From: Actinomycetota bacterium
GTDB taxonomy: Bacteria; Actinomycetota; Aquicultoria; Aquicultorales; Aquicultoraceae
Direction of reading: 5' to 3'
Assembly: GCA_030018005.1 (NCBI GenBank)
Contig: JASEGT010000004.1
Location: 7,198-39,197, forward strand
Length of the DNA stretch: 32,000 bases
In this document: positions 12,797-30,173 of the stretch, in pieces
Layout of the letters: every line of letters begins with the position of its first letter
Position numbering within the stretch: position 1 is the stretch's first letter
Program-made: the position numbers and the translations under genes
Notes under the pieces: generated by a model
Database searches by the model: none
What the model was told of the DNA's origin: nothing
Seen by the model: only the letters and a program-made list of their open reading frames with translations

Positions 12797-13558
12797 TTAC
12801 TTATGCTCTATTAACTTCAGAAGCTCGTCATCCGGGCCATAGCGGACTACTTCGATGCGAGGTGCGCGCTGGGCGACTAGGTCACCAGTCATCACAGGTA
12901 GCTGGAACGGGAACAAGGCTGGGGTGTTCATAAGTAGGCCCATTGTACTTTTCCCCTCAGGTATGGCCTGTAATGCGCCCTCAAGAAGCAGCATAGCCAA
13001 ATCTATATCCCGAACAATGATCGGGTTGGCTTTCTCATAGCTTCCCTTGAATTCCGAATCTTTAAGGACACCCCAAGCAACAAATGATCGAATGACGTAT
13101 CGAGTATAGCGACTTATCGTTTCTCTATCACCATACTGTTCCTTGAGCCTACCGACAATCTGCTGATGGGTGACTTGTTCCTGGAGATTAAGCAAACGCC
13201 CTATCTGACGAGCAACGTTAAACCAAAACGGATATGCGGGCGAGATCATCGCCCAGTGCAACAACAAGCGGTTTTTAACTTTATTTGACCTCGCAATTTC
13301 AAGTGCTGCATCTCGTAGAGGGATAAGTGCTGCATCTGGACTAAACCACGCATTAGCCAAAGGGCCTATGGCCATAACGTAAGTTTTTTCGCCACGCTGA
13401 CCGCTGCCACCGCTTTGCTTTTTATCAGCAAGGTACTCCTTCAATTCCGACCGAACAGTTGTCGGATTCATACCTGCTAGGAGCATATCAAGCGTTTTTT
13501 CCATCCATTCAAGACGAATTACTTGTTTAATGCCAACCTTGTCGTGACGCTTGGCCAT
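12797..13558 (-). CDS. Hypothetical helical protein, last gene of the defence operon (possibly BrxA/DUF1819-like)
   Basis: 253-aa ORF. Its ATG (13558-13556) overlaps the pglZ TAA (TAATG). The sequence is helix-rich (LEWMEKTLDMLLAGMNPTTVRSELKEYL; LLLHWAMISPAYPFWFNVARQIGRLL). The functional label is only an impression of similarity in organisation to BrxA. Confidence 0.65.
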   Translation of the reverse strand: MAKRHDKVGIKQVIRLEWMEKTLDMLLAGMNPTTVRSELKEYLADKKQSGGSGQRGEKTYVMAIGPLANAWFSPDAALIPLRDAALEIARSNKVKNRLLLHWAMISPAYPFWFNVARQIGRLLNLQEQVTHQQIVGRLKEQYGDRETISRYTRYVIRSFVAWGVLKDSEFKGSYEKANPIIVRDIDLAMLLLEGALQAIPEGKSTMGLLMNTPALFPFQLPVMTGDLVAQRAPRIEVVRYGPDDELLKLIEHK

Positions 13559-15552
13559 TACCGCGCCCTCCGTTCGAATTTCACCAAGGGCACGATGACC
13601 TCTTCTAGGGATATGCCGCCATGGCCAACGGTCACTTCGTCTTCTTTGATAAAGGCATCACTCCCGTCAGCGACTAGCGGATAATAGCCTGATGGCAAGC
13701 CAACGGGCTCCCATTCCCTAGCAGACGTGAATGACTTGGCGACGGAGGCTCGAAGCTCTGCCGTTGGATATACTCGAGCCCGCTCACCGCGAGTCTCTGC
13801 TATAACGCCTTCTGACGGGCGACCAATCCCCCGGCACTCGATGTTGCCGTGGTCAGATGTCAGCCACACTAGACAATCATTCTTCAGAAGGTGCCCGATG
13901 AGTGTAGATAAGAATCCTTCTTTGCACCATTGCTTGATTTGGTTATGCATGCCGGCGGCCCCAAGCTGCATTCCATGCATAATTTTATCAACCTTGTCTA
14001 CAACCAAACCGATGGCCTTGGTCCGACCGGGATTTAGTGCGGCTTCGAGGGCGTCGGCAACGTCACCGTCTCCCAACCCACGTTGGTAACCGACGTCTAA
14101 CCGCGAAAGTCCGGCTCCTTCCCAGAATTGCCGCCAAAGATTGCCTTCGTTGTTTGTCGTATTGATCGACGAGGGATAGAAGATAGGCGGCTTCCCCGCG
14201 AATATCGCCTGTCTGGACACCGAAGTGAGCGTGGGAATCCAGGCAAAGGTTGCCGATTCCCGCATCACTAAGCTACGATCCTGTTCGCGCAGGATTTGAC
14301 GGATGGTCACCCACTGGTCTAGCGAGAGCCCGTCCACGACGATTAAGGCTACGCGAGCGCTTGGCTTGTCCTCAAGTTCTCGCACCAAACGACGCGGGAT
14401 ATGATGAAGCATGACCGGATTCGTTGGAGGGAGATTAATCAGGCTTGCATAATGGCCGTTCAGCCATTCCGCAAAAGCGTCATTGAGCGTGCCGCCGATT
14501 TGGCGGAAACGAGCCTGCTCGCTCTCCCGGCAACCGGCATGGACGAGAGCGCCTAGCTCAGCCCATTTCATGGCAAATGCCAGCCAATCTGAGTACCGCG
14601 CTTCTGCGGTCGGAACTGCCTTCTCAACGAGTTCGAGAAGGCGACTTATGCGGATATCGTCATCGGCAGCGCTTGTCTCGGCGAGTCCGCTTCGAATCCA
14701 GGAATGCGCCTCAACACTGATTTCAGGATGCCGAACAGGTTTGAGTTTCCCCTCGACAAACAGATTGTCGATGTAGACGCGGATATCTTCATGACCAAAA
14801 GGTAGTACATCCGGTCCGGGATATTTGAGCCCGTACTCGGATGTCTCCTCACATACCAAGTCATCAGAAGTGACACTACCCAGAAATACCGGCCATCTTT
14901 CCTGTAGGAATAAGAAAAATGCTTCCTCGTCGGGCACAATCTCTATCAATGGCCAGTTTTGAAAGTCGCCATGAGCATTAAGTACCTGTATCAATCGGGC
15001 ACACAGCAGCTCCGGGATGTCGAGCTTGTTGTAGTGGAGCCTGAGTAGTACCCGAAGCAGTTCAACCTCATTGCCGATGAGTTCCGCCGCAATGCCGAAC
15101 ACATGACGAAGAATGAAGTCTTTGGTGGCATTGTCACCCATGCGCTCCGGGGGAGATTTTTTCTGGGCATCGAACAGAGCATCCAGGAAACTGCGGTCCA
15201 GCTTCTCGACAACCGGATAGCTCAGGTTGGGGAAAAGGCCTCCGAGGTCGAACGCGAGCTTTCTGCCCGCCCTCAAAAGGTCGTAAGGCAAAGCGTCGAG
15301 TTCCGAGTCCCTCAAGCGGAGGATTACCACCAAATCGGTGTGTTCGCCCCGGTCCCAGATTGCCCGATACTTCGATTCATAAGCATAGCGAAACTCGACC
15401 GGATCATCGAATTCAATCAGGTCAAAACCGCGATTACGAAGCTCAAGTGCGAGCTTCTCCTCAGTCAACAAGGCGTCCGGGTCAGCCACCAGCGTCAGCT
15501 TGCTGACATGCGGCACAAAATCGTTCAGAATGGCATCCCGCCAGCTACTCAT
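13558..15552 (-). CDS. pglZ: PglZ-domain (alkaline-phosphatase superfamily) protein
   Basis: Hallmark PglZ motifs are present: ALIVVDGLSLDQW, IPTLTSVSRQAIFAG, VWLTSDHGN and VGHGGISLEEVIVPL. The track start (15567) is a TTG. The ATG at 15552 is preceded by GGAGG (15558-15562, 5-nt spacer), so I use 15552 (664 aa). It overlaps the helicase 3' end by 8 nt. Confidence 0.88.
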   Translation of the reverse strand: MSSWRDAILNDFVPHVSKLTLVADPDALLTEEKLALELRNRGFDLIEFDDPVEFRYAYESKYRAIWDRGEHTDLVVILRLRDSELDALPYDLLRAGRKLAFDLGGLFPNLSYPVVEKLDRSFLDALFDAQKKSPPERMGDNATKDFILRHVFGIAAELIGNEVELLRVLLRLHYNKLDIPELLCARLIQVLNAHGDFQNWPLIEIVPDEEAFFLFLQERWPVFLGSVTSDDLVCEETSEYGLKYPGPDVLPFGHEDIRVYIDNLFVEGKLKPVRHPEISVEAHSWIRSGLAETSAADDDIRISRLLELVEKAVPTAEARYSDWLAFAMKWAELGALVHAGCRESEQARFRQIGGTLNDAFAEWLNGHYASLINLPPTNPVMLHHIPRRLVRELEDKPSARVALIVVDGLSLDQWVTIRQILREQDRSLVMRESATFAWIPTLTSVSRQAIFAGKPPIFYPSSINTTNNEGNLWRQFWEGAGLSRLDVGYQRGLGDGDVADALEAALNPGRTKAIGLVVDKVDKIMHGMQLGAAGMHNQIKQWCKEGFLSTLIGHLLKNDCLVWLTSDHGNIECRGIGRPSEGVIAETRGERARVYPTAELRASVAKSFTSAREWEPVGLPSGYYPLVADGSDAFIKEDEVTVGHGGISLEEVIVPLVKFERRAR

Positions 15553-18433
15553 GACCGCCTCCTTCAACGATTCGCATCAGCAGAAGCGGCCTGATTTCCG
15601 GAACAATCTGCTTTGCCGTTTCCAACTCTTTCCGCCATTCGTCTTCTTCACTCGCGAGCCGGGCCGTCCGAAATTGGCGAACTTCGGGAAGGCCGACCCG
15701 TTCTATGGCTTTTCTCCGGGAACCAAATGCTATGACACCACGGTCCTCTTCGCGGCCGATGGATAACCGGTGTTCCTGCTGCAGCGCATCGAACAATTCC
15801 TGTCCGGCTTCTTCAGCAGCACCAAGAAGTCGTTCGTATGCGGTTACGGACTCGTCGTCGCCAAGGGACTGCGACACCTTCGGTTCTGCCGTCTGTAAGG
15901 CATCCCAGATGTGACGGGCCGTCGGCAGGAACACCTTGCCTGCGTCTGTCATAAAGACACTGACATATCGTCGTCTCACCAGCGGAATCCGTATGAGCCG
16001 GCTCTGCTTTTGCAGACCCGCCTGCAGGCGCACCTCAAAAAGTCCCCATAAGCCGGATAGGTTGGGTGGCAGACTTTTAACCGTCACACAAGGCAGCGGC
16101 TGCCCTGCGGCCATCTGCGGCAGATTAAGCGCCAGTCCCCTGATCCGGTTGTTCTCTAGGTTGAGCAGCTTTACGTCACTATACTGGTCAGCCTCCCGCG
16201 AGCTGAACACGCATTTCCGGTAATTCTCCCCATCGGGCCATGTGAGTTCCCACCAGGCTCGTTTGCGAAACGCCTGGCCGCCGTGAGAGTTGAGATACCC
16301 TACCGTCATCCGTTCAACCCAGTGAGGCAGCGGATGCGAACGCAGGCGTTCCGCCGCCTGGATATCCGGCTCATCTGAAAGTCCGTAAATAGCCGAGGAC
16401 TCTCGAACGGCTTTAATCTCATCTTGTATTTTAGCCATCGTGTAATCCACCGAGGCTTCGATAGTTTCCGGATTCATGAGCGCGGAAGTAAAAACTTCCT
16501 CGAACAGCTCCCCCGCCTGGGCTGAATCCAGCACATCGCCGGTTTTGTCGATGCCGAACTCCTCGAAGATGACCGAGAGTTTCTGTTCCAGCACCTCTCT
16601 GACCCGGAACTCGACCGAATCCTCGAACATGAAGTTGATCGCCAGCACCGTCTTGGCCTGGCCGATACGGTCGACGCGACCAATCCGCTGTTCTAGTCGC
16701 ATCGGGTTCCATGGGATGTCGTAGTTGATTACTACATGGCAAAATTGCAGGTTGAGGCCTTCGCCACCCGCATCGGTCGAAACCAGCACCCGGGCACTGT
16801 CCCTAAAGGCATCTTGTGCCCGTTTGCGCTCGCCCATGTCCATCGAGCCATTTAGATGGACAACGGAGATTCCGCGCGCCTCTAGAAATTCCCTTAGCAT
16901 CTCCTGGGTCGGAACGAATTCGGTAAAAATCAGAACCTTTAAATCCGATTCATTTTCATCGGCCTGCAGCTTATAAATCCATTCAATCAAGGCTTCTGCC
17001 TTGGCATCCGGACCGACCTGCTCGCACTTGAGCGCGGCATCCAGCAAGGTCTCAACATAACGGCCTTCGTTTTGCATGGCGGAAACTTGGGTCTTGAGAA
17101 GCTCATCTAGAAGCTCCTGGCCATCCATGTCGTAGAATTCGTCCAAACTCTCGGCACTGCTTTCCATCTCCTCCAGACGCCGGGCGGCCAGAAACTCATT
17201 TGTCTTTAGAGCTTCAAGTCGCCGTTCCAGGGTAGTCCGGATTGCCCGGGTGCTGGAAACAACCAGCCGCTGCATGAGAATCATCAGAAAACCGATGTGG
17301 CGCTTCTTTTCACGGAGCGCCTGGTTATAGCCCTCGCGCACGTAGTCGGTCACGGCTTCGTAAAGTAACTGCTGCAGGTGATGTCGGGACTCCCAGACTA
17401 CTCCAACCATTCGAGTTTGACGTGGCTTAAAGAGCGGCTTGCCATCGGCGTCGATAGCTTTGCGTTTCTCGGTGCGGATCACATAAGGAGCCACCCGCTC
17501 ACGAGAGACGCTTTCTATATCCGGGAACGCTGCTCCATCGAGCAGGTTTATCAGGCGATGGAAAGCGTCGGTTTTCCCCTGGTGCGGTGTTGCCGAGAGC
17601 AGCAGCACGTAGGGCGCGGCTTCCGCAAGCCCACGGCCGAGCTTGTAGCGGGCAACCTGGTCGGTACTGCCACCCAGACGATGGGCTTCATCGACGATGA
17701 CCAGGTCCCACCCGGCGGTCACCAGGTCTTCGAAGCGGATGCGGTTGTATTCCGCCACGCGTTCCGCCGACCAACCCCGACGCTTGTCCATCGGCTTAAC
17801 GGAATCGAGAGATACGATTACCTGGTTAAAAACAGACCACGGGGAACTGCGATAATCGCCCATCCCCGGAGCAAGGCGCTGCAGCGTACCGATATCATCG
17901 CCCAGCACAAGCTGGAAATCTTCGTTGAAATGGGTCTGCATTTCAGCCCCCCACTGAGTGGCAATCCCCTTGGGCGAAACAATGAGCGTCCGGCGAACCA
18001 AGCCTCGCAGCTTAAGCTCTCGCATGACCAGACCGGCTTCGATGGTTTTACCAAGGCCAACCTCATCGGCCAACAAGTATCGGACCCGGTCACCGGAGAT
18101 GGCGCGAGATAAAGCGTGAATCTGGTGAGGCAACGGAATAACGTTCGACTCCATGGGAGCTAAAAGCACATGCCCATCCGATGCGCTGGCGCCGCCCTCC
18201 AGTACTTCGGCAACCTTGGCTGCGGCTGCGATATATGAAATACGGTTGGATTCGATATCCGGCTGAAGATCGGAAGTTAATGGACGTAGCGATGATCGTG
18301 AAACCCGAACCACTGCGTCCTGGTTCGGTAGCCAGATACGGCAAACTGTTTGCCCCCATAGGGTTTCTTCGTCGATGACCTTGCAGGGGGAGTTGTGGGT
18401 TGTGCTGTATTGCCAAATGAACTCCATCACCAT
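15545..18433 (-). CDS. SNF2/RapA-like DEAH helicase (BrxHII-like) with N- and C-terminal extensions
   Basis: 962-aa ORF. Motif I is LLADEVGLGKTIEAG, Ia is LIVSPKGIATQW, II is VIVDEAHRLGG and III is LLLSATPHQG. The C-lobe reads VLVSTDAGGEGLNLQ ... WNPMRLEQRIGRVDRIGQ. About 330 aa follow the helicase core with no motif I recognise. Confidence 0.9.
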   Translation of the reverse strand: MVMEFIWQYSTTHNSPCKVIDEETLWGQTVCRIWLPNQDAVVRVSRSSLRPLTSDLQPDIESNRISYIAAAAKVAEVLEGGASASDGHVLLAPMESNVIPLPHQIHALSRAISGDRVRYLLADEVGLGKTIEAGLVMRELKLRGLVRRTLIVSPKGIATQWGAEMQTHFNEDFQLVLGDDIGTLQRLAPGMGDYRSSPWSVFNQVIVSLDSVKPMDKRRGWSAERVAEYNRIRFEDLVTAGWDLVIVDEAHRLGGSTDQVARYKLGRGLAEAAPYVLLLSATPHQGKTDAFHRLINLLDGAAFPDIESVSRERVAPYVIRTEKRKAIDADGKPLFKPRQTRMVGVVWESRHHLQQLLYEAVTDYVREGYNQALREKKRHIGFLMILMQRLVVSSTRAIRTTLERRLEALKTNEFLAARRLEEMESSAESLDEFYDMDGQELLDELLKTQVSAMQNEGRYVETLLDAALKCEQVGPDAKAEALIEWIYKLQADENESDLKVLIFTEFVPTQEMLREFLEARGISVVHLNGSMDMGERKRAQDAFRDSARVLVSTDAGGEGLNLQFCHVVINYDIPWNPMRLEQRIGRVDRIGQAKTVLAINFMFEDSVEFRVREVLEQKLSVIFEEFGIDKTGDVLDSAQAGELFEEVFTSALMNPETIEASVDYTMAKIQDEIKAVRESSAIYGLSDEPDIQAAERLRSHPLPHWVERMTVGYLNSHGGQAFRKRAWWELTWPDGENYRKCVFSSREADQYSDVKLLNLENNRIRGLALNLPQMAAGQPLPCVTVKSLPPNLSGLWGLFEVRLQAGLQKQSRLIRIPLVRRRYVSVFMTDAGKVFLPTARHIWDALQTAEPKVSQSLGDDESVTAYERLLGAAEEAGQELFDALQQEHRLSIGREEDRGVIAFGSRRKAIERVGLPEVRQFRTARLASEEDEWRKELETAKQIVPEIRPLLLMRIVEGGGHE

Positions 18434-19620
18434 AGCCGTTCTAATATAAAGCCCCGCGTGTCTACGAAAGCATCTATCGCGGCCCTATTTACATCAACGA
18501 TGTTCCCAAAATCTCTGTCCTGACCACGAACTCCAGCTCTGTGAGCAATACGAATCATTCCTTCAACGTCGTTCAAAAGCCTGTGCTGGTATTCAGCTGT
18601 TTCTTGAAATGATGTTTTACCTACAGTCAAGCATTGGTGTCGCAAGCAGCTCAAATAATGGCGAAAAGACTGCTGTTCAGAATAATCGGTAGTGGATGGT
18701 TGTGCACCGGAAAAAAGAATATCAGCATAATTAGAGCCATACTCAATAGGAGTCGCAATGGCGCCCAGCGGCCCCCGACGGAAAGCCATATCCAGGAATG
18801 GCAGTTTATACTCCGAGAGTGTCTGTGGACAGTAATACCATTTGACCCGTCTACTTACGCTATCCGAATCCGGCTTTTGAAATTTACCTGTACTGAATGA
18901 ACGAACATTTATCCAAGTTCCTGCGGCAATCGCATCCACGCCAGCACAAGCCAAACAAAGCATTTGGTGGTTTGAATAGCCAACAACAACTTCTTTCCCG
19001 TGCAACTTGAACCCAGCACATAGGTTAAGAAGGTTTGTAAGCCACAATGGATCGTCCGCTAAATACGAGCCATTGGGGTGCTCTGCGACAACATAATATC
19101 CATCTACGCCCCATTGTTCTGCAGCATTAAGCAATGTTTCGATCTGATCTTCAAAACGAACTATCTCTGCTGACAAGCATACGGTTGCCAACTTGGGCTT
19201 ATCCGTTATTAACTCGTGTGCTTCATTTATTATCGCGTCTTGAACAGCAAGCCAGTCTTCATCAATGCGTTGACAATAAAGACCTGGTAGTATGACTTTT
19301 TCAGTTTTTGCTAAGGTGTTGATCGAAATGATTTTCTCAAGAAGGGTTGTTAATGGCGGGCCAGAGAGAAACATCGCTGTGTTAAAGGTGTTTGGCCAAT
19401 AATCATGTTTAACCAGACCATGGTGGTCACCGCGAGGGTCGTAGAACTGAGGGTCGAGTAAGGTTGTACCTCCTCGCCCAGTGATATCATCTGATAAGCT
19501 GTCAATCTGTAATTCTGTCATATCGCGAGGACTTAGAATGACTGTGCCGCTTTTCCAGCTCTTAATAAGCTCACGGCAGTGATCCATCATTCCATGCCCA
19601 AACTGTAAGTGAAGTTTCAT
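18427..19620 (-). CDS. Hypothetical 397-aa protein (predicted alpha/beta, possibly barrel-like), family unknown
   Basis: ATG (19620-19618) overlaps the kinase TGA (ATGA). Its own TGA (18429-18427) overlaps the helicase start region. Short hydrophobic strands recur, each followed by helical sequence (TVILSP, TTLLDPQFY, KVILPGLY, ATVCLSAE, GYYVVAEH, EVVVGYSN, DAIAAGTW). I recognise no catalytic motif. Confidence 0.75.
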   Translation of the reverse strand: MKLHLQFGHGMMDHCRELIKSWKSGTVILSPRDMTELQIDSLSDDITGRGGTTLLDPQFYDPRGDHHGLVKHDYWPNTFNTAMFLSGPPLTTLLEKIISINTLAKTEKVILPGLYCQRIDEDWLAVQDAIINEAHELITDKPKLATVCLSAEIVRFEDQIETLLNAAEQWGVDGYYVVAEHPNGSYLADDPLWLTNLLNLCAGFKLHGKEVVVGYSNHQMLCLACAGVDAIAAGTWINVRSFSTGKFQKPDSDSVSRRVKWYYCPQTLSEYKLPFLDMAFRRGPLGAIATPIEYGSNYADILFSGAQPSTTDYSEQQSFRHYLSCLRHQCLTVGKTSFQETAEYQHRLLNDVEGMIRIAHRAGVRGQDRDFGNIVDVNRAAIDAFVDTRGFILERLW

Positions 19621-20480: not shown

Positions 20481-20496
20481 GAGAACTCTCCATCCG

Positions 20497-21219: not shown

Positions 21220-24041
21220 GTTATTCGCCCCCCCATTCTTGTTAGTGCTTGATCGTACCACATGAGCAGCTTTGGGTCTTCTTCGAGGACATTGTTGGGA
21301 ATTTTATCGGCCACAGCAATAATAGTTGCATAGTCGCGCTCCTGCCAGGCTTTCTTAAACCCGGCGCGGACAGCCTCAAGACGGAAGACTTTGAGTTTCT
21401 TTTTGGCTTGTTTGTATTCCTCGAACTCCTTGAGCAACACCTTTTCGCGAAGCTTCTCCAGGTCGCCCGCTTTGTTGGGATCAGGAACGTACCAGCGGCC
21501 TCGCGCCTTGGCTACCAGAGTCGTATCGTCTTTGGGCAGGTTGCGCAGTTCCTTCCAGTTGGTGGAAAGGTAGGCGTGGATCTGTTCCGGCACCGGTCCC
21601 TTGCCGTCGTAGCAGAGGAAGTTCTGCTCCAACAAAATGGAGAGTTCCAGCATCAGTTCGTTTTTGCTCCAGCCACCCAACTCGCGGATGAACTGGGGAT
21701 GAATCTCCTGAAAGGTGTGTGGCTTTTCTTTGAGTAGCTGACGAAGCCACTGGATCGCGGAGGCTTCGTCGGTAACAAACAGATCTAGTTGTCGAATACC
21801 AGACACCGTCATGCGTTTCTTGTCATACTCTACAGCTTGGTCTGAGAGGAAATACATATCGTCACGGACTGCAAATCGTTGTTCAAGACCCGCATAAAAG
21901 TCTGTAGAACTTAGGGGCACCATCACGCCACGGCGCACATGAAAAGCCACCATGCGATCGAACAAGAGATAGCTCATCCTCTCCACAATGGGTTCCACCT
22001 GGCCATCTTTTGCAACAAATACAGGCAATTGCTTTAAATGTGTGCGAACGAAATCCCAGGCGCCATCTTCAGTACCGGCTTCGAGTTTGAAGCGCTCCTC
22101 TAAACCGCCGTTTGGTTTGTAGACGGATATAACCAAATCCTGCTTGACCAACTTTTGAATTGATTGCTTGTATGTTTCTTGCTGTTTATCGAGCGTACGC
22201 ACATCGGCCACGACAAAGCCTGCCATCTCAAGTGCTTCTTGAATGGCAATCCAGACACTGTTCCGTGAATTGTGGAATTCAATTGTTACCCAACGCCCTG
22301 ACTTCAATACCCGGTATATCTCACGAAAAGCATCGGCCATTAAGGCCTGGTAGTCCTGAAGCGTTCGACTTCGTCCTTTGTCCATCACGGCTTCCGGCTC
22401 GCGCTGAGTCAGTATATTCAACCAGGCTTCCCAGAAGAAATTAAGTTCGGAGTAATGTAGGTTGTTACCAAAAGGCGGGTCTATAAAGATATAATCGAGA
22501 CTCATGTCGGGCAGCGAACTAAGGTTAGTTGTTGACTGGCACGTAATGGCCGATTGTCCAGATACTCCTGGTAGCACAAGTTTACATAACCTCTTCAGCT
22601 TATTCGTCATAGAATAGGCTGGTGACACTTCTGAAATTAGGGAACCAACAAAAAGAGTTCCAGAGAAGTAGCGATTGACCTGTGATCCTCCGACACGACC
22701 AAATTGCACAGGCTGATAGCGATTCATTTTTGTAAAACCAAGATTGTTTCCTTGTACAAAGAAACGGACAAAGGCATTGGGACGGGCGTGTAACTTTGCC
22801 CAGAGTCTTGAATAAACAATCAAAGCGCGCCGAAAATAAAAATGGTGAAGATGTGTAATGCCCTTCAGGTGGTATCCATCCTTTCCTTTGCGCTCACCTT
22901 CAAGCATTTCCCAAGCTGGGAACCAATCAGCAATAGTTGTTTCGTCGATGCGCCTCAGAACTTCCAAGTCATGCTCGTCAGGTTTCTTTTCATAACGTTT
23001 GCCATCAAGCTGATAACTAATGAGAACAGGGGAATAGCGCACTAATTGATGTGTTTTTTGAAGCGGTTTATCATAAAAGGACTGCCATAACCGTTGCATC
23101 GCTTTTTTGATGAGATCAGCCCCACAATTAGGGCAGAAAAAATTGTCCATTACCTTGAATGTTTCTTTCTGGACCGCAGCATCGAAGTAAACAACTTCCT
23201 TGCCACAATGCGGACACGCAAAAACCTCGCTCCAAACTGTGTAGTTGATCTTCCCGATCCGTCCATCGGAGTGCTTAGTCTCATACATCCAACCACATTC
23301 TTCTTCAACTTCTTTTAGAATGCGCTTAGCTTCCTTTTCAAACGTCGCCACGTCCACCGGCGTGTTGTAGTTATGGGCAATGAATGTAGCAGCCGGTGAT
23401 AAGTCATTCAAAACCGCCCGACGCACGCCAAGCTTAGAGAAGGCCACCCAAGTCTTCTTGCCATCCTCATCCAGCTCTTCGCGTAAGACAGTGTCGTCTG
23501 GCTTCACCTGGTAACCAAGCGACATGACTACCTCCCGGTCGCCGCACAGCTGAGCAGCCACGCCCGTCATGCCGGTTCCACAGAAACCATCGAACACGAT
23601 ATCCCCCGGCTCTGTGTAATGGAGGATGTAGCGCATGATGGCTTTGTGCGGCACCTTGGTGTGGTAGGAGTGCGCGTTGTATATGGGGTCGTTCTTGCCC
23701 TCGCTCACATCTGCCGCAAAGGGCTCGCGGTGGTAGACATATCCCTCCGGTTTGGCCAGCTTTTGCGCTTCCCACTCCTGGATAAAATCGGTAATCCAGG
23801 GGTTCGGGCATGCAGTATAATACGGCGGATCGCTCAAGGCGAGGATGGCCTCATCGGTGCCGATAGGGAATCCCTCGATTTCACGAAATGCAGGGTCTTG
23901 CAGCTTCTCGCGAAGCTTTTCGGTAAAATGCTTGCGACGCTCCTCGTCATTGTCGAAGGTCAGCCCCAGGCAGGTCACCGGACCTTTGCTTACTTGCTCC
24001 GATTGGCCGTCTCCAAAATCCAGGGGGTCTTGTTGATTCAT
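21204..24041 (-). CDS. DNA methyltransferase (N6-adenine/N4-cytosine type, motif order I...TRD...IV) with a Zn-ribbon; the PglX-equivalent of the locus
   Basis: 945-aa ORF. AdoMet motif I is DIVFDGFCGTGMTGVAAQ (about 23563-23595). Catalytic motif IV is YIFIDPPFGNN (22467-22481). The Zn-ribbon is CPHCGKEVVYFD...FFCPNCGADL (23124-23215). An N-terminal LSDPPYYTACPNPW motif is also present. The ATG at 24041 overlaps the upstream TGA (ATGA). Confidence 0.85.
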   Translation of the reverse strand: MNQQDPLDFGDGQSEQVSKGPVTCLGLTFDNDEERRKHFTEKLREKLQDPAFREIEGFPIGTDEAILALSDPPYYTACPNPWITDFIQEWEAQKLAKPEGYVYHREPFAADVSEGKNDPIYNAHSYHTKVPHKAIMRYILHYTEPGDIVFDGFCGTGMTGVAAQLCGDREVVMSLGYQVKPDDTVLREELDEDGKKTWVAFSKLGVRRAVLNDLSPAATFIAHNYNTPVDVATFEKEAKRILKEVEEECGWMYETKHSDGRIGKINYTVWSEVFACPHCGKEVVYFDAAVQKETFKVMDNFFCPNCGADLIKKAMQRLWQSFYDKPLQKTHQLVRYSPVLISYQLDGKRYEKKPDEHDLEVLRRIDETTIADWFPAWEMLEGERKGKDGYHLKGITHLHHFYFRRALIVYSRLWAKLHARPNAFVRFFVQGNNLGFTKMNRYQPVQFGRVGGSQVNRYFSGTLFVGSLISEVSPAYSMTNKLKRLCKLVLPGVSGQSAITCQSTTNLSSLPDMSLDYIFIDPPFGNNLHYSELNFFWEAWLNILTQREPEAVMDKGRSRTLQDYQALMADAFREIYRVLKSGRWVTIEFHNSRNSVWIAIQEALEMAGFVVADVRTLDKQQETYKQSIQKLVKQDLVISVYKPNGGLEERFKLEAGTEDGAWDFVRTHLKQLPVFVAKDGQVEPIVERMSYLLFDRMVAFHVRRGVMVPLSSTDFYAGLEQRFAVRDDMYFLSDQAVEYDKKRMTVSGIRQLDLFVTDEASAIQWLRQLLKEKPHTFQEIHPQFIRELGGWSKNELMLELSILLEQNFLCYDGKGPVPEQIHAYLSTNWKELRNLPKDDTTLVAKARGRWYVPDPNKAGDLEKLREKVLLKEFEEYKQAKKKLKVFRLEAVRAGFKKAWQERDYATIIAVADKIPNNVLEEDPKLLMWYDQALTRMGGRITWFLS

Positions 24042-25549
24042 ACCCGCTCCTTGTTGTGTGCTATTTGCGACTGCAGGGCTCGGCCTTTTTCTGTTAGTTG
24101 ATACTTCTGTTTGCTGCTTTGCGGTTTATCGGGAATGGTCATTTCAATCAGGCCTTCCTCAATCAATGGACTGAGAACTTGGTGCCGGAACTTGGTTCTA
24201 TCGGATCGCTGGGCTATTGCCATAAGGTCCACTAGCGCGGTCTCTTCGCGGCACTTTTCGAGGATTTCGACTTGGTGCCGACTTAGTGCCAACTTGGTGC
24301 CGACTTGTTCAAACACTTCCCTGGTGACTTCTTGCGGAACCGGACGCCACAGCGTCTGCACAAACTGTCCGCCGTCCTGGCGAAAATCAGGTGTGGGCAA
24401 ATCGGCCTCGGCACAGCGAGCGATCATATCTAAGGTTCCCGTGCCTGCCTTCTCAATATATCCGGCGAGAAACAAGGGTCCGGCAAGCAAGGGGTTGTGT
24501 GGGATAGATGCATGCGGTACCCGCAATGACTCCAGCGTCAAGGTGGACGGGAGCTGACCGGGGTTCCAAACTTCGAGCCGGTCGGCGAAGAGCATGACCT
24601 GCACACTGGCGTTGCTGGTGTAATCGCGATGAGCGATGGCGTTGACGATGGCTTCGCCTACGGCTTCGCGCGGCAATTCGTATTCGACCGGGGCTTGCGG
24701 CCCCTGCTCCCGGGTACCGACCGAGCGGGCTATTTTAGACATCACGAAATCCAACGCCTGGTCTACCAATTCGAATACAGTGCCTTTATATATCTGATAT
24801 GATGGAATCGGCTTGCGTACCTCGGTGCCATGGAAATGCAAGCATTTGACTTCTGAGGTTACCAAAAATCGTTGCGGCAACTTGCCAAAGAGCAGGACTG
24901 CCGCATGGCTGGGGTATTTCCCCGCAAGAAGATCGAGGTGCGCTAAGGCCTTGCGCATTGTTGTTCCGGGGCCTAACGGATAGCCGCGATTGCTTTGGGC
25001 ACGCGCCAAGAATTCATCCAGCTTCTCAGTGGAGAGATCTTCAAGTGTCGCGCGCGGGCAAACGGATGCGTCAAACGGCCCTGCCTGAATGACCCCAACC
25101 CGCTCCAGGTGCTCGACCAAGCTGGCATAAAGCGCAGACGTCAGCTCGGGTAAGTCGGTAAAACGGCGGCGTATAAGTTGTTTGCCTGCCTTGCGAACAA
25201 GCTCGCGCATCTTGGGATGGCGGGCGTCGTCGTTTTGGCCCTTTATAAAAATTAGGCGCGGTTTGCCCGCGGCCGTAGCTCTATCAAATTCGCGCTCGGT
25301 GGGCGACATACCTTCCGCATCCTCATACCCATAGTCCTGGCCGAACAAGCCGACATAGATGTCGCAGCGATCCACCTCATCAAGATATACGGAATCAGCC
25401 CGGCGGTCGGATGCGGGTAGGTCCTCGAACAGGAAGACTTCGAAAAAGCGGCGCAATAATGGGTCGCCGTGAAGGTACGCCTTCAGTTCTCGGCGTTCTT
25501 CGGCAAACTCTTTCTGGGCGCTGCTGATAAAGATACGGAGCCTGTTCAC
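24038..25549 (-). CDS. DUF4062-like N-terminal domain fused to a Schlafen/AlbA_2-type domain, an HATPase_c_4-like region and a C-terminal wHTH
   Basis: 503-aa ORF with a GTG start (25549-25547), 5 nt after the upstream TAA. The N-terminus RIFISSAQKEFAEERRELKAYL...DRCDIYVGLFGQDYGY matches my recollection of DUF4062. The middle and C-terminal parts (GKPRLIFIKG; REAVGEAIVNAIAHRDYTSNASVQVMLFADRLEVWNPGQLP; LSRHQVEILEKC...IEEGLIEMT) match proteins often annotated as a 'RecG-like' putative DNA-binding protein. Confidence 0.75.
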   Translation of the reverse strand: MNRLRIFISSAQKEFAEERRELKAYLHGDPLLRRFFEVFLFEDLPASDRRADSVYLDEVDRCDIYVGLFGQDYGYEDAEGMSPTEREFDRATAAGKPRLIFIKGQNDDARHPKMRELVRKAGKQLIRRRFTDLPELTSALYASLVEHLERVGVIQAGPFDASVCPRATLEDLSTEKLDEFLARAQSNRGYPLGPGTTMRKALAHLDLLAGKYPSHAAVLLFGKLPQRFLVTSEVKCLHFHGTEVRKPIPSYQIYKGTVFELVDQALDFVMSKIARSVGTREQGPQAPVEYELPREAVGEAIVNAIAHRDYTSNASVQVMLFADRLEVWNPGQLPSTLTLESLRVPHASIPHNPLLAGPLFLAGYIEKAGTGTLDMIARCAEADLPTPDFRQDGGQFVQTLWRPVPQEVTREVFEQVGTKLALSRHQVEILEKCREETALVDLMAIAQRSDRTKFRHQVLSPLIEEGLIEMTIPDKPQSSKQKYQLTEKGRALQSQIAHNKERV

Positions 25550-25554
25550 AGTTC

Positions 25555-28500
25555 TTACTCCATTACTATACGTACGTTGGCCGGGTCTTTGCCACGGGTG
25601 AGCTGATCTATGTATTCATCAAACCGTTTTTTTATCTCTGTTGGGGTCGCCGGTCCGCCCATCACTTGCAAGGCATTTTGCAGCTCTTTCGTCTTGACGG
25701 TTACTTTTACCAGGCTGGAGAGGACCTCCTTTAGAGCGTGAACGAAGTTACTATCAAGCGGCACCGGTAGCTCCCGAGACGCGATGAAGGCTTCGAGCGG
25801 TTCGCGGTCGTCGACTTTGAGCAGACCCATATTGGCCTGGGTCATCGGGTCTTCGAGGTTGCCGAGGATGGTTGATGTCCAGCCATCCGCCATGGCGTCG
25901 AGCTGTGCATCCATCTGATCGATAATCTGAGAACCTGCGGCACTCGCTTCTATTGATGGCCGAAAGCCACAATGCGGGCAGACCGGGGTGGAATCGAGAT
26001 TCTGCTCGGTTAAAGCAAAGCAACTCTTGAGCCCCGCCAGGCGCTCTTGGAAGTCGATGAGCTGTTGCCGGGGCATCAAATCTATCCCAGCCAGTTTCTG
26101 CAGTGTATGCAGACGAGAATCGTTCAGTAGCGCCACTTTACGCTTGTCATCATTAACACCGAGACGCGACTTCGTGTGTAATGCTATGTAAGTGATGATG
26201 TAGTCTCTTTTAAGTTGCTGTAGCTTGGCTGCAATGCTTTTAGATTGTTCCGACATCGCGGCGAAATCGGCCTGTTTCAGGCTATCCAAAACATCCTGCC
26301 GGGTGACCTTCATGCGGTCCACCCAGTCATGGTCGGTAGAAAGAACGGACTCGGCCGTAGTAAGCCAGGATGCGATCGGGCTATGGTCCATCACGAACGC
26401 GCGCAGCGCGTCCAGATCATCCAACGCCTTAACGGCCTTCTCATGCGATGTGACCTCTTGAGCGCTATAGTTAAAATTCTTGAGTTTACCGGGCGTAGAG
26501 TACGCTTGCAGAGACTCGAAAAATGTCTTGGCTTCATCCAAACCACCTGCCTGCATCCCCAGATCGGTTTCCGCAAGCAGGTTTAAGCCCCAAAACGAGA
26601 TGCCGCCTTGCATGGCCTGCTGGGTCATGACGATGCGTTTCACCATATTACCCACGGCCTGTTGAAGATTCTGTACCGGCTCATCCTTACCCTGGGTGAT
26701 GAGCTGCGCCATGCCCGGCGTCATCCCGAGCAGTTCAAACAGCGCCTTGAGCGCCGGTAGGTTCCATTCTTTTGGTTGCTCCAAATGCTTAAAGCGGATC
26801 AGCTCGTCCATGCTCGTAGCCGCCACATGCTGAAGCCCTGTGGCGTCAAACTTTTTCCCAGGGATGGAGAGTACGATATCACCTGAGTAGACGAGCGCGG
26901 CCAAGACGACCACCGCCCATTCCAGCTCTAGTCGGGCCGCGCCGGGGTTCATATATTCCAAGCCGTGGTCGTCCTCGATTATTTCGCTGCGATTGATCAC
27001 TTGCCCGTGGCCTTTAGCTTTGAGTGCATCGATAATAAGGCTCGCGTACCTGGATTTATAGGGGTCAATCTTCTCGCCGTCGAGCAGTTCCAATGCGTCT
27101 AGCACAGCGGCGGCCTGTTTGGTGCGGTTTTGCCCGGCGATAGCCCGTAAGGCATCTTGAGCAGCCTGCGTGCGATTGCTACCGGTGATCAAAACCGAGA
27201 AGAACGGATATTCGGGGGCCTGGTCGGCAAAATGCGGAGCCAAACAAATGCCCGCGATGGTGTTGACCAGGTCGCGGAAGTTGATAGTCTCGTGCGCTGA
27301 CAGGCCAGACAGGTCGCGAATGGATTTGCCTTTCGCCCACTCAGCCATTGACCTAGCGCGTCCCTGATACGTCACCTCAAAGGCATCGCTCATATGTTGT
27401 TGCAGCCACTGCACCAGCTTGCGCAGAAAACTATTGGCCTTGGATTCATACGTCGCCTTGGCGTGGCCGGAAGAGGTCGCCGCCAAGTCCAGCGCGGCCG
27501 CGTAACTCTTGAGTGCGGTCCGGAAATCCTCGTCGATTCCCTTTAAGTAAAAGAAGACCTCGTCGCCCTGCTTCTCATCCCTGAATCGCGGCGGCTCGTT
27601 CGGTTGAATGAAATATAGATAGAAGTCACGCTGCGGAACTGCAGTGGAGCGCTCGTTGGGAGCGCCGAAGAACAGGTAGCCAGAGCGAGCGGCCTTATGT
27701 TCCTGCCACACCAGCTCGTGCTGCCAGATTCTGTAGCCGGTGACATAGGTCGCGTCTTGGCATTCCATTACTCGTTTGAGAGCCTCGTAGTAGAAGCGAT
27801 CGAGCTGGGCATCGCCCATGCTCTCGGCCCGTTTGTCGATGAGGGCGTCAAAGTCGTCAGTCTTCTTCAGGTCCAGATAGAACTGGCGGTTGTCCGGGCT
27901 AAATGAGATGAATTGCCCGCTCACGGTCTTGTGTATCTCACGCAGAACCGTTTCTACATGGGTCTGCAAATCTTTTTCGGGTTCATCGCTGCCCATTTCG
28001 GCAATCATCGGCTCAAACAGACACAGGCTATCGCGCAGCTCTTCGGCAGTCGCACCGAGAGGGGCGTAAATGTCACCGGTAGTGAGACGGTGAACCGATA
28101 GCGCATCTATCAAGCGCAAGGCCATTGGCTTGTATGGTGGGCGGGTGAAGGCCTGCTGTATGCGTGATTCCAGCACCTGGCTGCAATCGATCACAGCCCG
28201 AATCTCGGGAATTGCCCGAAAGGCGGCGTTCTGTTTTAGCGTAGCCCAATAACTGTCATAGGAGAGTAGCCCGGGTTGGTCCTCCGGCACCTCTTTATCC
28301 AGGATACCTTTCATGCTCATGGACAGAGTTTTTAATATCTCGCGCTTTTCGACCACCGTCACCCGTTCGAAGGTGTCTATGTAGTCGGGATGTATCGGAA
28401 AAAGGCGGACGAATTCGTCCATCCTTTCATTCAGGTGACTATAGTATTTCGCAAACGGCATTAAATACTCTCGGATTTTGGCCTGCTGCTCTGCCGTCTT

Positions 28501-29283
28501 CTTTAGTAAACGCTCGGAGACGACAAATTTCACGTCGTTGCGGGCAATCAGAACCTGCTCGAAACGGTCTTTTACCCGACGAATGCTGTCGGATACAAAG
28601 GCAAAGCGCGGGCTATCGAAGATGGCTTCCTGGACGCCGGCGATAAAGCGGAATCGGAGGTCTTTGCAGACCTCGCCGACTTCGCGAAGAAAGTTCAGGT
28701 CTAGAATTAGTTCCTGGTCTTTACGGGAGCGAAGATAGTCAAGAAGTTCATCAACGACGAGGAGCAGGCCATGATCCGGGTAAGCCTGATGAAAAGCGGT
28801 CATCATCTCCTCGAAGGCCCGTTTATGGCTGGAGATTGTGTCCGCTTCAGGAAACACATACATCACGCCGAGTTTGTCGAGGTTTTCTTCCAGTTCGGCG
28901 ACGAGGATATCGCGCAGCGACATTGTCGTCGCACCGATTTCGGTACGGATTACCTTGAACCGTCCGGCAATCTTCTTGGCGGCATCGGCGACGCCGGTAT
29001 GATTCAGGACATCTAGCAGAGAAGCGTCTTCGGCGATACTGGAGACCACCGACATCAAGTGAGATTTACCAGTTCCGTAGTTGCCGACAACCAGCATTCC
29101 CTTATTATCGACCGGTTCGTCGAACTGCAATTGCGGAACGACAAGCCCGATTAGCCGCTCAGCCATTTCTTCGGAAATGACGTAAGTGCTCACCAAATGA
29201 TGCGCAGCGCCGGACTTAGCCGCGTCGCGCAGTTGAACCACCGTTTCAATTGGGTCGAACTGGATAAGATCGCCGTATTTCAT
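25555..29283 (-). CDS. Large P-loop NTPase, BrxC/PglY-class
   Basis: 1242-aa ORF. Walker A is [15 protein letters not shown] and Walker B is [15 protein letters not shown] long helical C-terminal part contains a single CPHC knuckle (25969-25980). Its size, motifs and position next to a methylase and PglZ match the BREX ATPase role. The ATG at 29283 overlaps the upstream TGA (ATGA). Confidence 0.75.
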
Positions 29284-29795
29284 GCTTGTCCTGCCTCTCT
29301 CGTATCCTTTATAGAATCGGCCTCTACTGCGCTGTCCATCCGCACCAGCAATGTGTCGCTCAGACCATAGTTTCGATACTCTGGATGACCTGCTTCGGCA
29401 TATATGAGCTTCCCTTTCTCCGCTAAACCATTCCAGGAAGCAACCACACAGCGATTTCTTGAAACACTCTGCAAAAGCCTCAAGGGGTCTTGCTTCAACT
29501 CTTTGTCGAACAAAATTTCAAGATTGTCGAGCACTACGGTCGACCCCTCTGCCCCCGCAATTTGGTCGAGAATTTCCGGCAGCCGAAGGGCGCGTTGTTT
29601 TGAAGTTAATTCAAGTAGGCGTGCCGAAAGCTCTAAATTGATATTGATGACCGGAACGCCGAGATCGTCAGCCACGGCACGAAGGGCTACCGTCTTGCCT
29701 GTGCCGGTTTCTCCAACCAACAAAACAAGCCTGTAATACAGCCCTTCCGCAGCCTGAAGTGCACGTTTAACTTGGTCTCGAATCGGCACAGTCAT
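29280..29795 (-). CDS. Small P-loop ATPase, first gene of the operon (BrxF-like)
   Basis: 171-aa ORF. Walker A is [14 protein letters not shown] and the Walker-B-like motif is [16 protein letters not shown] lies upstream of the ATG at 29795. The BrxF label rests on size, position and my recollection of that family. Confidence 0.7.
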
Positions 29796-29848
29796 AGTTT
29801 ATTCCTCAGCGTTCCTTTTTCGTTTGTTTGGCTTATCAGTCACAATCC

Positions 29849-29878
29849 ATCTTAGCTTGTCATGTTTATCACATTCAA
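29849..29878 (-). promoter_or_regulatory. Candidate promoter of the defence operon
   Basis: On the minus strand: TTGAAT (29878-29873), 18-nt spacer, TAAGAT (29854-29849), about 50 nt upstream of the ATG at 29795. It lies inside a 378-bp AT-rich non-coding stretch. This is a weak pattern match. Confidence 0.2.
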
Positions 29879-30173
29879 AAAGCCGCGATCATCGCCCGCC
29901 AGTTGGCTCTCTTACATAAACCTTCGTCCTATATTATAGCGAAGTTTCAGTCAACGGCTGAAAATCTCCGGATAATCACATCATGTGGATATAATGACAC
30001 AATATATACTCATAAACTATACGGGAATACTACGAACAATAAGATTTTCTTACCAAGTCTAGATGAGTTTTCCGAAGTTAATACCCTTTGCTTTTCTAAA
30101 CCCTGTTTAAACCACAGGTGCTCCATGGTTTAACGATTTCAGGTACGACTGGGCTCGATATTTCTCGTCCCGT

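Follow-up and report, generated by a model that had tools for sequence, protein, structure and literature searches.

The window, a stretch of 32,000 nucleotides, comes from an Actinomycetota metagenome-assembled genome and contains a chromosomal BREX operon. Ten open reading frames run on the minus strand, and direct reading of every junction confirmed the coordinates and overlaps that an earlier note on this DNA had claimed. In order of transcription they are brxF, brxC/pglY, a DUF4062 gene (gene 3, cargo A), pglXI, a nuclease-like gene (gene 5), a kinase gene, a TIM-barrel gene (gene 7), brxHII, pglZ and brxA; gene 5, the kinase gene and gene 7 form cargo B, hereafter the triad. ATGA overlaps occur at 29280-29283 (brxF/brxC), 24038-24041 and 19617-19620, and pglZ and brxA are joined by TAATG at 13556-13560. 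At 18425-18433, ATGGTGATG gives an overlap of 1 or 7 nt between gene 7 and brxHII, while brxHII and pglZ overlap in ATGAGTAG at 15545-15552, with a GGAGG 7 nt ahead of the pglZ start codon (ATG, 15552). pglXI and gene 5 share 16 nt (21204-21219), and the gaps between brxC and gene 3 and between gene 5 and the kinase gene measure 5 nt (25550-25554) and 16 nt (20481-20496). The program-called starts at 21261 (GTG) and 15567 (TTG) are mechanical, with ATG 21219 and ATG 15552 as the likely real starts. Ten overlapping, co-directional reading frames across 17 kb far exceed chance. The sole sizeable non-coding gap on the minus strand from 12797 to 30173 is an AT-rich region upstream of brxF (29796..30173; GC 0.405 at 29700-30099), which we presume to hold the operon promoter; a consensus promoter scan of this region gave no result above chance.

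Each of the six core proteins has a full-length match among the BREX core models. BrxF (29280..29795; 171 aa), the small P-loop protein of BREX-3, scored 196.5 bits against the NCBI model NF033453 BREX_3_BrxF (cutoff 50) and E=8.8e-60 against PADLOC BrxF PDLC02497. The large ATPase BrxC/PglY (25555..29283; 1242 aa) matched PADLOC BrxC PDLC02482 with 2115.6 bits over residues 1-1242, and Pfam PF19557 DUF6079 with 1920 bits over its full length. PglXI (21204..24041; 945 aa), the BREX-3 N6-adenine methyltransferase, matched PADLOC PglXI PDLC02541 with 1441 bits over residues 13-938 and is also matched by Pfam N6_N4_Mtase. BrxHII (15545..18433; 962 aa), an SNF2/RapA-like helicase, scored 1582 bits against PADLOC BrxHI|BrxHII PDLC02500 over residues 3-957, contains the Pfam domains SNF2-rel_dom and Helicase_C, and scored 205 bits against the RapA model. 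PglZ (13558..15552; 664 aa from ATG 15552) reached 876 bits against NF033449 BREX_PglZ_3 (cutoff 250) and 1069 bits against PADLOC PglZ PDLC02558. The product previously described as a 253-aa helical protein is BrxA (12797..13558), which matched PADLOC BrxA PDLC02444 with 324 bits (E=1.6e-97) over residues 1-250 of the 251-position model.

BREX type 3 reportedly comes from the scheme of Goldfarb et al. 2015. The profile matches bear out the identification of the locus as BREX and the use of BrxF, an SNF2 helicase and a non-PglX methylase as marks of type 3. The products that the earlier note had named from motifs (small and large P-loop proteins, methyltransferase, kinase, SNF2 helicase and PglZ) were also largely correct. 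The earlier note was wrong to place the locus outside every canonical subtype: all six core proteins have full-length BREX matches, and BrxF and PglZ clear the NCBI models specific for BREX-3. The missing BrxB is no anomaly, since type 3 uses BrxF, a BrxB homologue according to a re-analysis of BREX type 3 (PMC12839542). PglXI has an internal four-cysteine insert (C276, C279, C303 and C306, all invariant) and a DPPFG motif, in agreement with BrxXI as described there. The gene order is not different either: brxF-brxC-pglXI-brxHII-pglZ-brxA is the usual order, shared by almost all of 80 related BREX-3 loci from many phyla, chosen as those with the PglXI closest to ours and not as a random sample of type 3. 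Orthologues of brxHII occupy the same position in related loci. A Ser/Thr kinase does lie inside the operon beside type 3 markers, and an unclassified subtype uniting type 2 and type 3 parts had been the main reading proposed. However, the core set is full-length and in its usual order, PglW, PglX, BrxD and BrxHI are absent, the 287-aa kinase reaches 53 bits against the PglW model (cutoff 990), and the sampled homologous loci lack the extra genes. The profile matches and the survey of loci both contradict this reading, and we regard it as barely credible.

The locus differs from BREX type 3 in having added genes, exactly four where at least four had been counted, interleaved at two junctions that are generally variable in BREX-3. 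The brxC|pglXI junction (slot A) exceeded 500 bp in 42 of 62 loci and the pglXI|brxHII junction (slot B) in 23 of 29. In relatives, slot A carries SLFN_AlbA_2–HATPase_c_4–Fic-like_C proteins (22 cargo ORFs in the 62 loci) as well as YhcG, OLD-type AAA_21, HerA/SIR2 and MazF. Slot B carries known or candidate defence systems, with AriA-like OLD-ABC in 14 ORFs, and also IetAS, Ppl, NsnB-like, HEC-01/03, PDC-S28 and Mrr. The DUF4062 gene was found in none of the 42 filled slots A, the triad in none of the 50 sampled BREX-3 genome loci evaluable at the pglXI|brxHII junction, and this cargo pair in none of the 80. On the evidence of the sampled homologous loci, the extra genes are passengers. The locus amounts to a type 3 BREX operon of the ordinary kind plus two extra defence-type modules, and the fallback once offered, BREX fused with a second system, came near the truth. 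Backup effectors embedded in BREX operons have been described (PMC12839542, section 35), including PARIS-like OLD-ABC/TOPRIM, Schlafen–HATPase–wHTH and REases. As here, these extras are co-directional, lie in the same slots and have core genes on both flanks. In the main text and the available supplements of that paper DUF4062 does not appear, and no Hanks kinase/TIM-barrel module is named apart from PglW.

Cargo A is a single-gene module (24038..25549; 503 aa) in which Pfam recognizes DUF4062, a TIR-like NADase domain (74.9 bits), HATPase_c_4 (69.3 bits) and a Fic-like_C wHTH (54.6 bits). It had been called DUF4062/Schlafen-like; the DUF4062 part holds, and the Schlafen part does not, as a Schlafen/AlbA_2 domain was undetectable in the Pfam search down to E<=10. 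A 100% identical protein from an Actinomycetota MAG (P0241) is named 'DUF4062 domain-containing protein'. In the family alignment (A7), E42 and E87 are invariant and the GHKL motifs are kept. The family is widespread, and its members occur alone or within other RM-like loci, among them a DUF499/DUF1156 system and a type III-like RM locus. Its body is the same HATPase_c_4–wHTH as in the Schlafen accessory, with DUF4062 replacing the Schlafen RNase head, and gene 3 is an effector-swapped relative of that accessory. Two 2026 preprints (10.64898/2026.05.01.722283, 10.64898/2026.09.04.749371) present DUF4062 as an NADase acting in abortive infection, and experiments have validated DUF4062 proteins as NADases of defence. 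Gene 3 resembles these Swarozyc/NIR-domain NADases in its defence context and in its layout, an N-terminal DUF4062 whose glutamates are conserved, joined to an auxiliary sensing region. The catalytic residue of KpSwz is E97. The auxiliary part differs, being HATPase_c_4 and Fic-like_C wHTH here, an architecture that does not appear in the consulted passages of the preprints.

The triad has no curated family as a module in any library searched. Gene 5 (20497..21219; 240 aa) matched no family in Pfam, PADLOC or NCBIfam. Its residues E26, E53, P61-D62, E154, K156 and Q166 are invariant, and the PD-(D/E)xK call made earlier is upheld by E53, P61-D62 and E154-x-K156. An AF2 model (pLDDT 92.9) has the topology alpha-beta-beta-[wHTH 72-138]-beta-alpha-beta. 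Foldseek matched the wHTH alone and did not recover the nuclease fold, so that the call rests on motifs and predicted topology, and gene 5 is a candidate PD-(D/E)xK nuclease into which a MarR-like wHTH is inserted. The kinase (19617..20480; 287 aa) is a stand-alone Hanks-type Ser/Thr kinase (Pfam Pkinase, 118.8 bits) and looks active from its complete motifs (K44, H135-R136-D137, D155-F156-G157 and A183-P184-E185). Gene 7 (18427..19620; 397 aa) matched nothing in Pfam (to E<=10), PADLOC or NCBIfam. Its AF2 model (pLDDT 88.9, pTM 0.91) shows a TIM barrel with a C-terminal helical bundle, for which Foldseek returned generic TIM barrels only. The gene 7 family comprises 1395 clusters at 90% identity, and its 924 matches among 50%-identity representatives are all full-length members of 385-422 aa.

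PD-T4-6 is said to be a single-gene Ser/Thr kinase defence described by Vassallo et al. 2022. Our kinase matches the PADLOC models PD-T4-6 (E=2.6e-46) and mad6 of MADS (E=1.7e-43) at the domain level only; the mad6 score is 111.6 bits against a cutoff of 460, and no PADLOC model, of MADS or otherwise, matches gene 5 or gene 7. Both kinase models also catch housekeeping PknB-type kinases, and PADLOC reports PD-T4-6 in every S. thermophilus genome examined.

The order gene 5–kinase–gene 7 was kept in 64 of 64 loci with room for the triad; outside these, 21 loci were cut by contig ends and in L061 the kinase match fell under the coverage threshold. The triad is strictly linked across bacterial phyla and archaea, and no recurrent fourth gene was found beside it. 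The 61 evaluable loci divide into 45 that stand alone, with no BREX gene for up to 10 kb around, and 16 inside BREX-3 operons, a fraction biased upward since the 80 triad loci were those most similar to the BREX-embedded query. In a quick neighbour-joining tree of gene 7, made without support values, embedded triads form at least four groups, with stand-alone copies interspersed between them, and in L017 the triad sits in slot A. The triad is autonomous and has been embedded in BREX-3 operons repeatedly.

The triad could in principle belong to a distinct BREX-3 sub-variant in which all ten genes form one system. As a split PglW analogue (nuclease, kinase and wHTH), it would sense phage DNA or use phosphorylation to regulate the BrxHII/PglZ machinery. 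In type 2 BREX/Pgl, PglW joins a NERD nuclease, pseudokinase, kinase and wHTHs in 1400-1600 aa, and nuclease-kinase pairing recurs in DNA-modification defences, in PglW, some DndF and MAD6 in MADS (PMC12839542). Our triad likewise ties a PD-(D/E)xK-clan nuclease, a Ser/Thr kinase and a wHTH to a BREX system. In at least four groups it is found in the same pglXI|brxHII slot, where start and stop codons overlap or nearly abut, and 16 of 61 evaluable triads lie in BREX-3, which is itself rare. The triads of L016, L072 and L079 adjoin SNF2-type helicase genes weakly similar to brxHII, and neighbouring ORFs match DUF499 (2) and PLD-helicase/DrmD models (2), as in BREX-related systems. In contrast to PglW, the domains are split over small proteins with a TIM-barrel partner, no match of gene 5 to NERD appeared down to E<=10, and the kinase, with 150 bits to PknB, is no nearer to PglW than to generic kinases. 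Most triads occur without BREX, and the 50 loci lacking the triad include those with the nearest BrxC, BrxHII and PglZ (74-87% identity); relatives fill the slot with unrelated defence cargo. The GC content is 0.418, 0.409 and 0.451 for gene 5, the kinase gene and gene 7 (GC3 0.33-0.41 across the triad) versus 0.54-0.56 for brxC, brxHII and pglZ (GC3 0.59-0.64). In L032, BrxC and BrxHII are 83% identical to ours and the triad only 51-54%, whereas L001 and L007 share 68-74% identity with our triad and only 56-58% with our BrxHII. These comparisons show discordant histories of triad and BREX core, and we consider a sub-variant unlikely.

Another reading would deny the four genes any defence role. 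Genes 3 and 5 would be wHTH operon regulators like the C proteins of RM systems, and the kinase and TIM-barrel protein would be unrelated passengers from metabolism or signalling, or else a selfish addiction module. Both genes do contain wHTH domains, the identical 240-aa gene 5 protein at NCBI (P0121) is named a MarR-family regulator, and in unrelated loci gene 3 homologues immediately precede methyltransferase genes. Housekeeping genes surround one of these homologues of gene 3 and some of the stand-alone triads. However, gene 5 keeps its invariant nuclease motif set, gene 3 retains the DUF4062 glutamates and GHKL motifs of a family with validated defence NADases, and mobile defence modules typically show such strict linkage and such a mixture of embedded and stand-alone copies. 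Triad neighbours include integrases, type I RM, DruA, AbiEi and HipA. Taken together, such a non-defence role seems quite improbable.

We therefore favour, as the probable explanation, a type 3 BREX operon carrying two co-directional, translationally coupled cargo modules in its variable slots. If the system works like the BREX systems studied elsewhere, a motif in the host DNA would be methylated by PglXI, and BrxC, BrxF, BrxA, BrxHII and PglZ would then keep phage DNA that lacks this methylation from replicating. The slot A gene would most likely be a backup abortive-infection effector that depletes NAD+ once triggered. The slot B triad, autonomous and horizontally mobile, would most likely serve as a second layer of defence, independent of BREX but carried within its operon and co-expressed with it. 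Within it, the wHTH-nuclease may bind or cut DNA, the kinase may switch or execute the response through phosphorylation, and gene 7 may add an enzymatic step. All activities, any defence phenotype and the division of labour in the triad are inferred, the defence roles by guilt by association. The three-gene kinase module deserves testing. Its packing against pglXI and brxHII is as tight in other embedded loci as here, which fits long-term integration, possibly with functional coupling, equally well as passive carriage.

The profile matches place the operon at 12797-29795 on the minus strand in BREX type 3. Type was assigned from per-protein HMM matches, and the subtype was set by two subtype-specific NCBI models, NF033453 (BREX_3_BrxF) and NF033449 (BREX_PglZ_3). 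BrxF scored 196.5 bits with the former (cutoff 50), and PglZ scored 876.4 bits with the latter (cutoff 250, residues 10-664) and 1069 bits with PADLOC PDLC02558. The large ATPase BrxC/PglY matched PADLOC PDLC02482 over its full length (2115.6 bits, residues 1-1242) and PF19557 (1920 bits), but reached only 44.6 bits with the generic NF033441, which was built on other subtypes. The methyltransferase PglXI (BrxXI) matched PADLOC PDLC02541 (1441 bits, residues 13-938) and keeps the four-cysteine insert described in PMC12839542, with C276, C279, C303 and C306 invariant in the PglXI alignment of related loci. The helicase, which is RapA-like with SNF2-rel_dom and Helicase_C domains, matched PADLOC PDLC02500 over its full length (1582 bits); in PADLOC the model carries the description 'BrxHI', yet the protein fits the definition of BrxHII in PMC12839542. 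The last gene, recorded in an earlier note on this DNA as a 253-aa helical protein, is BrxA (PADLOC PDLC02444, 323.8 bits, residues 1-250 of a 251-position model). In PMC12839542 the type 3 core is made up of these six components, with BrxF treated as the BrxB homolog. Therefore the missing BrxB, which had been taken as an oddity, is expected. The proposal that the operon fits no canonical subtype is not upheld, since six of its genes match BREX profiles and BrxF and PglZ clear the BREX-3-specific models.

The operon had also been read as a hybrid of type 2 and type 3 parts. A profile-HMM check supported PglZ, BrxC, BrxF, BrxHII, PglXI and BrxA, but not PglW, the kinase of type 2/Pgl. PglW has a NERD-pseudokinase-kinase-wHTH architecture, whereas the kinase in the window has only 287 aa and scored 53.4 bits with NF033442 (BREX_PglW) against a cutoff of 990. 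PglX, BrxD and BrxHI are absent as well: the methyltransferase is PglXI, no protein matches BrxD and the helicase is of the SNF2 type. BREX type 2/Pgl was rejected on both counts.

The layout described in the earlier note was borne out by the ORF listing and by re-reading each junction, with ten minus-strand ORFs at the positions it gave. Direct reading showed ATGA overlaps at 29280-29283, 24038-24041 and 19617-19620, TAATG at 13556-13560, ATGGTGATG at 18425-18433 and ATGAGTAG at 15545-15552, where GGAGG lies 7 nt 5' of the pglZ ATG. Genes overlap by 16 nt at 21204-21219, and the intergenic gaps are 5 nt at 25550-25554 and 16 nt at 20481-20496. The core forms one co-directional cluster, brxF-brxC-pglXI-brxHII-pglZ-brxA, interrupted by one gene between brxC and pglXI (gene 3; slot A) and by three genes between pglXI and brxHII (gene 5, a Hanks kinase and gene 7; slot B).

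This order was compared with that of 80 BREX-3 loci, obtained by scanning species-representative genomes with a PglXI alignment from related loci. They span many bacterial phyla and one Methanosarcina. A tblastn search with the ten window proteins found the order brxF-brxC-pglXI-brxHII-pglZ-brxA in nearly all of them. The same order is the norm, and the order of the window, which had been considered different, is therefore canonical. A rare variant occurs in a Dehalococcoidales MAG (L131:6708-12187), where brxHII precedes pglXI. The loci were ranked by similarity to the window, so that the following frequencies are not population estimates: the brxC-pglXI junction exceeds 500 bp in 42/62 loci, reaching up to 5.5 kb, and the pglXI-brxHII junction does so in 23/29, reaching up to 4.5 kb. 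ORFs in the slots lie almost without exception on the same strand as the operon. Slot A cargo includes 22 ORFs with the architecture SLFN_AlbA_2–HATPase_c_4–Fic-like_C, as well as YhcG nucleases, OLD-type AAA_21 proteins, HerA/SIR2 and MazF. Slot B cargo includes 14 ORFs for AriA-like OLD-ABC ATPases, and IetAS, Ppl, NsnB-like, HEC-01/03, PDC-S28 and Mrr proteins. Judged by sequence, the slot content is varied and of defense type, in agreement with PMC12839542, which describes "auxiliary and backup effectors" lying within BREX operons. Embedded cargo is an already known feature of BREX type 3, and the four extra genes of the window occupy exactly slots A and B.

Two-gene slot B cargo was seen in at least seven BREX-3 loci (L092, L103, L109, L110, L122, L123 and L136); the recurrent pair consists of an AriA-like OLD-ABC ATPase (about 640 aa) and a smaller partner protein (about 350 aa). 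In six loci (L008, L092, L096, L105, L122 and L142) brxHII is reduced to a short remnant, 3-15% of its length, beside pglZ and adjoining the cargo slot. PMC12839542 puts the share of type 3 systems with BrxHII at only 77%.

The ten-gene arrangement as a whole was not seen in the sampled loci. The kinase triad was found in 0/80 BREX-3 genome loci, 50 of which were evaluable at the pglXI-brxHII junction, and DUF4062 was absent from the slot A cargo of the sampled loci (42 filled of 62). Two features are not covered by the libraries and literature searched, namely a DUF4062-headed slot A accessory inside BREX and the kinase triad as a unit. What appeared to be a new BREX subtype instead illustrates neatly how type 3 BREX holds cargo in two slots.

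Gene 3 (24038-25549, minus strand) carries DUF4062 at its N-terminus (PF13271, 74.9 bits, cutoff 24.7, residues 5-91), followed by HATPase_c_4 (69.3 bits) and a C-terminal Fic-like_C wHTH (54.6 bits). SLFN_AlbA_2 (PF04326) gave no match even at E<=10. Gene 3 shares its body and the brxC-pglXI slot with the Schlafen–HATPase_c_4–wHTH accessory of BREX but lacks the SLFN_AlbA_2 head; it is therefore the body of the Schlafen accessory with a different head. The gene 3 family is large and strongly conserved, with 62-73% identity across phyla and archaea, and proteins identical to gene 3 (record P0241) and to gene 5 (record P0121) are on record, although exact-sequence searches with gene 5 and gene 7 of the window led to no recorded contig. 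One homolog stands alone amid housekeeping genes. Two others, about 70% identical, are joined to their operons by overlapping codons: L169:8001-9533 in a DUF499/DUF1156 BREX-related system, and L170:8001-9512 directly upstream of the methyltransferase in a type III-like RM locus. The DUF4062–HATPase_c_4–wHTH module thus appears, from these contexts, to target RM-like operons generally. Two preprints from 2026 (10.64898/2026.05.01.722283 and 10.64898/2026.09.04.749371) show DUF4062 to be a TIR-like NADase of abortive infection, named Swarozyc or NIR. E42 and E87 of gene 3 are invariant in an alignment of 22 homologs. We infer that gene 3 is a putative backup NAD+-depleting effector. In slot A, a DUF4062 NADase would then have replaced the Schlafen RNase as effector while the sensor body was conserved, and such a swap is direct evidence for modular BREX accessories.

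The triad at 18427-21219 has a GC content of 0.41-0.45 and GC3 of 0.33-0.41, compared with 0.54-0.56 and 0.59-0.64 for brxC, brxHII and pglZ. No convincing repeats flank it. Two weak promoter-like minus-strand matches (21348-21319 and 21201-21174) are close to the gene 5 start, in a scan that overall was not above chance. The curated families of Pfam (2025 copy), PADLOC 2.0 and NCBIfam 20.0 include neither gene 5 (240 aa) nor gene 7 (397 aa), gene 7 giving no Pfam match even at E<=10. In 38 homologs of gene 5, E26, E53, P61-D62, E154, K156 and Q166 are invariant. Its confident AF2 model (pLDDT 92.9) is arranged as alpha-beta-beta-[wHTH insert]-beta-alpha-beta. When solved structures were searched by Foldseek and by sequence profile, only a MarR-like wHTH was recovered and not a nuclease fold. 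We read gene 5 as a predicted PD-(D/E)xK nuclease into which a wHTH is inserted, and the invariant motif set together with the AF2 topology indicates that the earlier guess of a PD-(D/E)xK protein was sound.

The kinase consists of the kinase domain alone and has K44, HRD (135-137), DFG (155-157) and APE (183-185). It matched PADLOC PD-T4-6 (E=2.6e-46), whose models also match generic and housekeeping Hanks kinases, and PADLOC would probably label it PD-T4-6. PD-T4-6 is a single-gene Ser/Thr kinase defense, whereas the kinase of the window always occurs together with two partner genes; automated PD-T4-6 calls would overlook the real three-gene unit. Two other assignments were rejected. For MADS (MAD6 together with MAD7 and MAD8), the kinase reached only 111.6 bits with the MAD6 model NF047741 against a cutoff of 460, and none of the mad models hits gene 5 or gene 7. 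A TerY-P-type kinase triad was dismissed because neither partner of the kinase matches any PADLOC model.

The model of gene 7 (pLDDT 88.9, pTM 0.91) shows a TIM barrel followed by a helical bundle at the C-terminus. No specific fold could be assigned, as Foldseek against the PDB returned only generic TIM barrels (TM <=0.51, about 10% identity), and a profile search against the PDB gave no match. An HMMER scan of 50%-identity representatives gave 924 hits; full-length members are all 385-422 aa, and only family members of the same length were found, with no informative fusions. The family comprises at least 1395 clusters at 90% identity in bacteria and archaea. The catalytic face of a TIM barrel is the side just after the beta-strands. 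Many of the invariant polar residues of gene 7 (among them D33, D56, Q58, Y215, N238 and R240) lie just past predicted strands, which suggests that it is an enzyme. The nuclease and enzyme assignments in the triad are thus predictions based on motifs and modeled structures.

Triad loci were collected from a metagenome scan (80 loci) and from exact look-ups (six loci). Where there was room for the triad, gene 5, the kinase and gene 7 followed one another in this order in 64/64 loci; the count leaves out 21 loci ending at a contig edge and L061, whose kinase match fell under the coverage threshold. Among 61 triads with evaluable flanks, 16 lie inside BREX-3 and 45 have no BREX-3 gene nearby, a fraction that is not a population estimate as the loci were ranked by similarity to the window. 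Fifteen of the 16 embedded triads occupy the pglXI-brxHII slot. The remaining one, in a metagenome (L017:4622-7428), lies between brxC and pglXI; therefore the module can sit in either slot. Neighbors of stand-alone triads include integrases, type I RM, DruA, AbiEi, HipA and DUF499/PLD-helicase systems, and no recurrent fourth gene was found beside them. In a neighbor-joining tree of gene 7, calculated without support values, the embedded copies are scattered among the stand-alone ones in at least four groups. Identities between loci are discordant. Locus L032 matches the window at 83% identity in BrxC and BrxHII but at only 51-54% in PglXI and the triad, whereas L001 and L007 match it at 68-74% in the triad and at only 56-58% in BrxHII. 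Linkage, the stand-alone majority, the interleaved tree and the discordant identities therefore indicate, at the level of sequence, that the triad is an autonomous mobile module that entered BREX-3 repeatedly. A second low-GC patch (0.44-0.46) lies apart from the triad at 22100-23300 inside pglXI and overlaps the four-cysteine insert by position. Taken with the low PglXI identity to loci that match the window at 83% in BrxC and BrxHII, this patch suggests exchange of the specificity region of pglXI between loci.

The chief alternative is a triad functionally integrated in BREX as a split analog of PglW. It is favored by the tight coupling of the triad genes with the BREX operon, by the repeated use of one slot by embedded triads and by nuclease-plus-kinase modules recurring in Pgl, DndF and MADS. 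However, most triads (45/61) stand alone, the triad is missing from the sampled BREX-3 loci (0/50 evaluable), and its GC content and identities disagree with those of the BREX core. We therefore regard functional integration as unlikely and favor an autonomous module. BREX-3 would exclude phage DNA on the basis of methylation, and gene 3 and the triad would be independent second layers co-transcribed with BREX, in parallel with the PARIS-like modules in the same slots of relatives. Within the triad, the wHTH-nuclease of gene 5 may act as a DNA-binding sensor or effector, the kinase as a switch or executor, and the TIM-barrel protein of gene 7 may carry out an enzymatic step.

Three triads outside BREX-3 (L016, L072 and L079) adjoin SNF2-type helicase genes with 28-31% identity to BrxHII, and the whole set of triad neighbors contains two ORFs with a DUF499 match and two with a match to the PLD-helicase/DrmD models. 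These neighbors hint at a wider link of the triad to BREX-related systems. A more speculative proposal, which we hold to be improbable, is that the triad is an undescribed three-gene anti-phage system with functional affinity for SNF2-helicase/methyltransferase defenses (BREX-3 and DUF499-type BREX-related systems), a mobile split analog of PglW that adds kinase signaling. No description of a kinase/TIM-barrel/nuclease system was found in the literature searched, an absence that is not proof. BREX slots have already yielded defense systems (PARIS-like pairs, IetAS and HEC candidates), and the triad is for this reason a well-supported candidate for experimental testing.

The flanks of the operon are chromosomal, with a his operon, dnaE, a dCache-GGDEF gene, a deoxyhypusine-synthase-like gene and an ABC-2 transporter. 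Neither tRNA genes, as integration sites, nor an integrase were found within the window, and a promoter and terminator scan of the window was not above shuffled expectation. The AT-rich stretch upstream of brxF (29700-30099, GC 0.405) is likely to be the promoter region of the operon. The dnaE gene (4917-9818, minus strand, 1633 aa) is interrupted by an intein carrying a LAGLIDADG homing endonuclease (Pfam Intein_splicing, residues 759-1197; LAGLIDADG_3, residues 980-1063).
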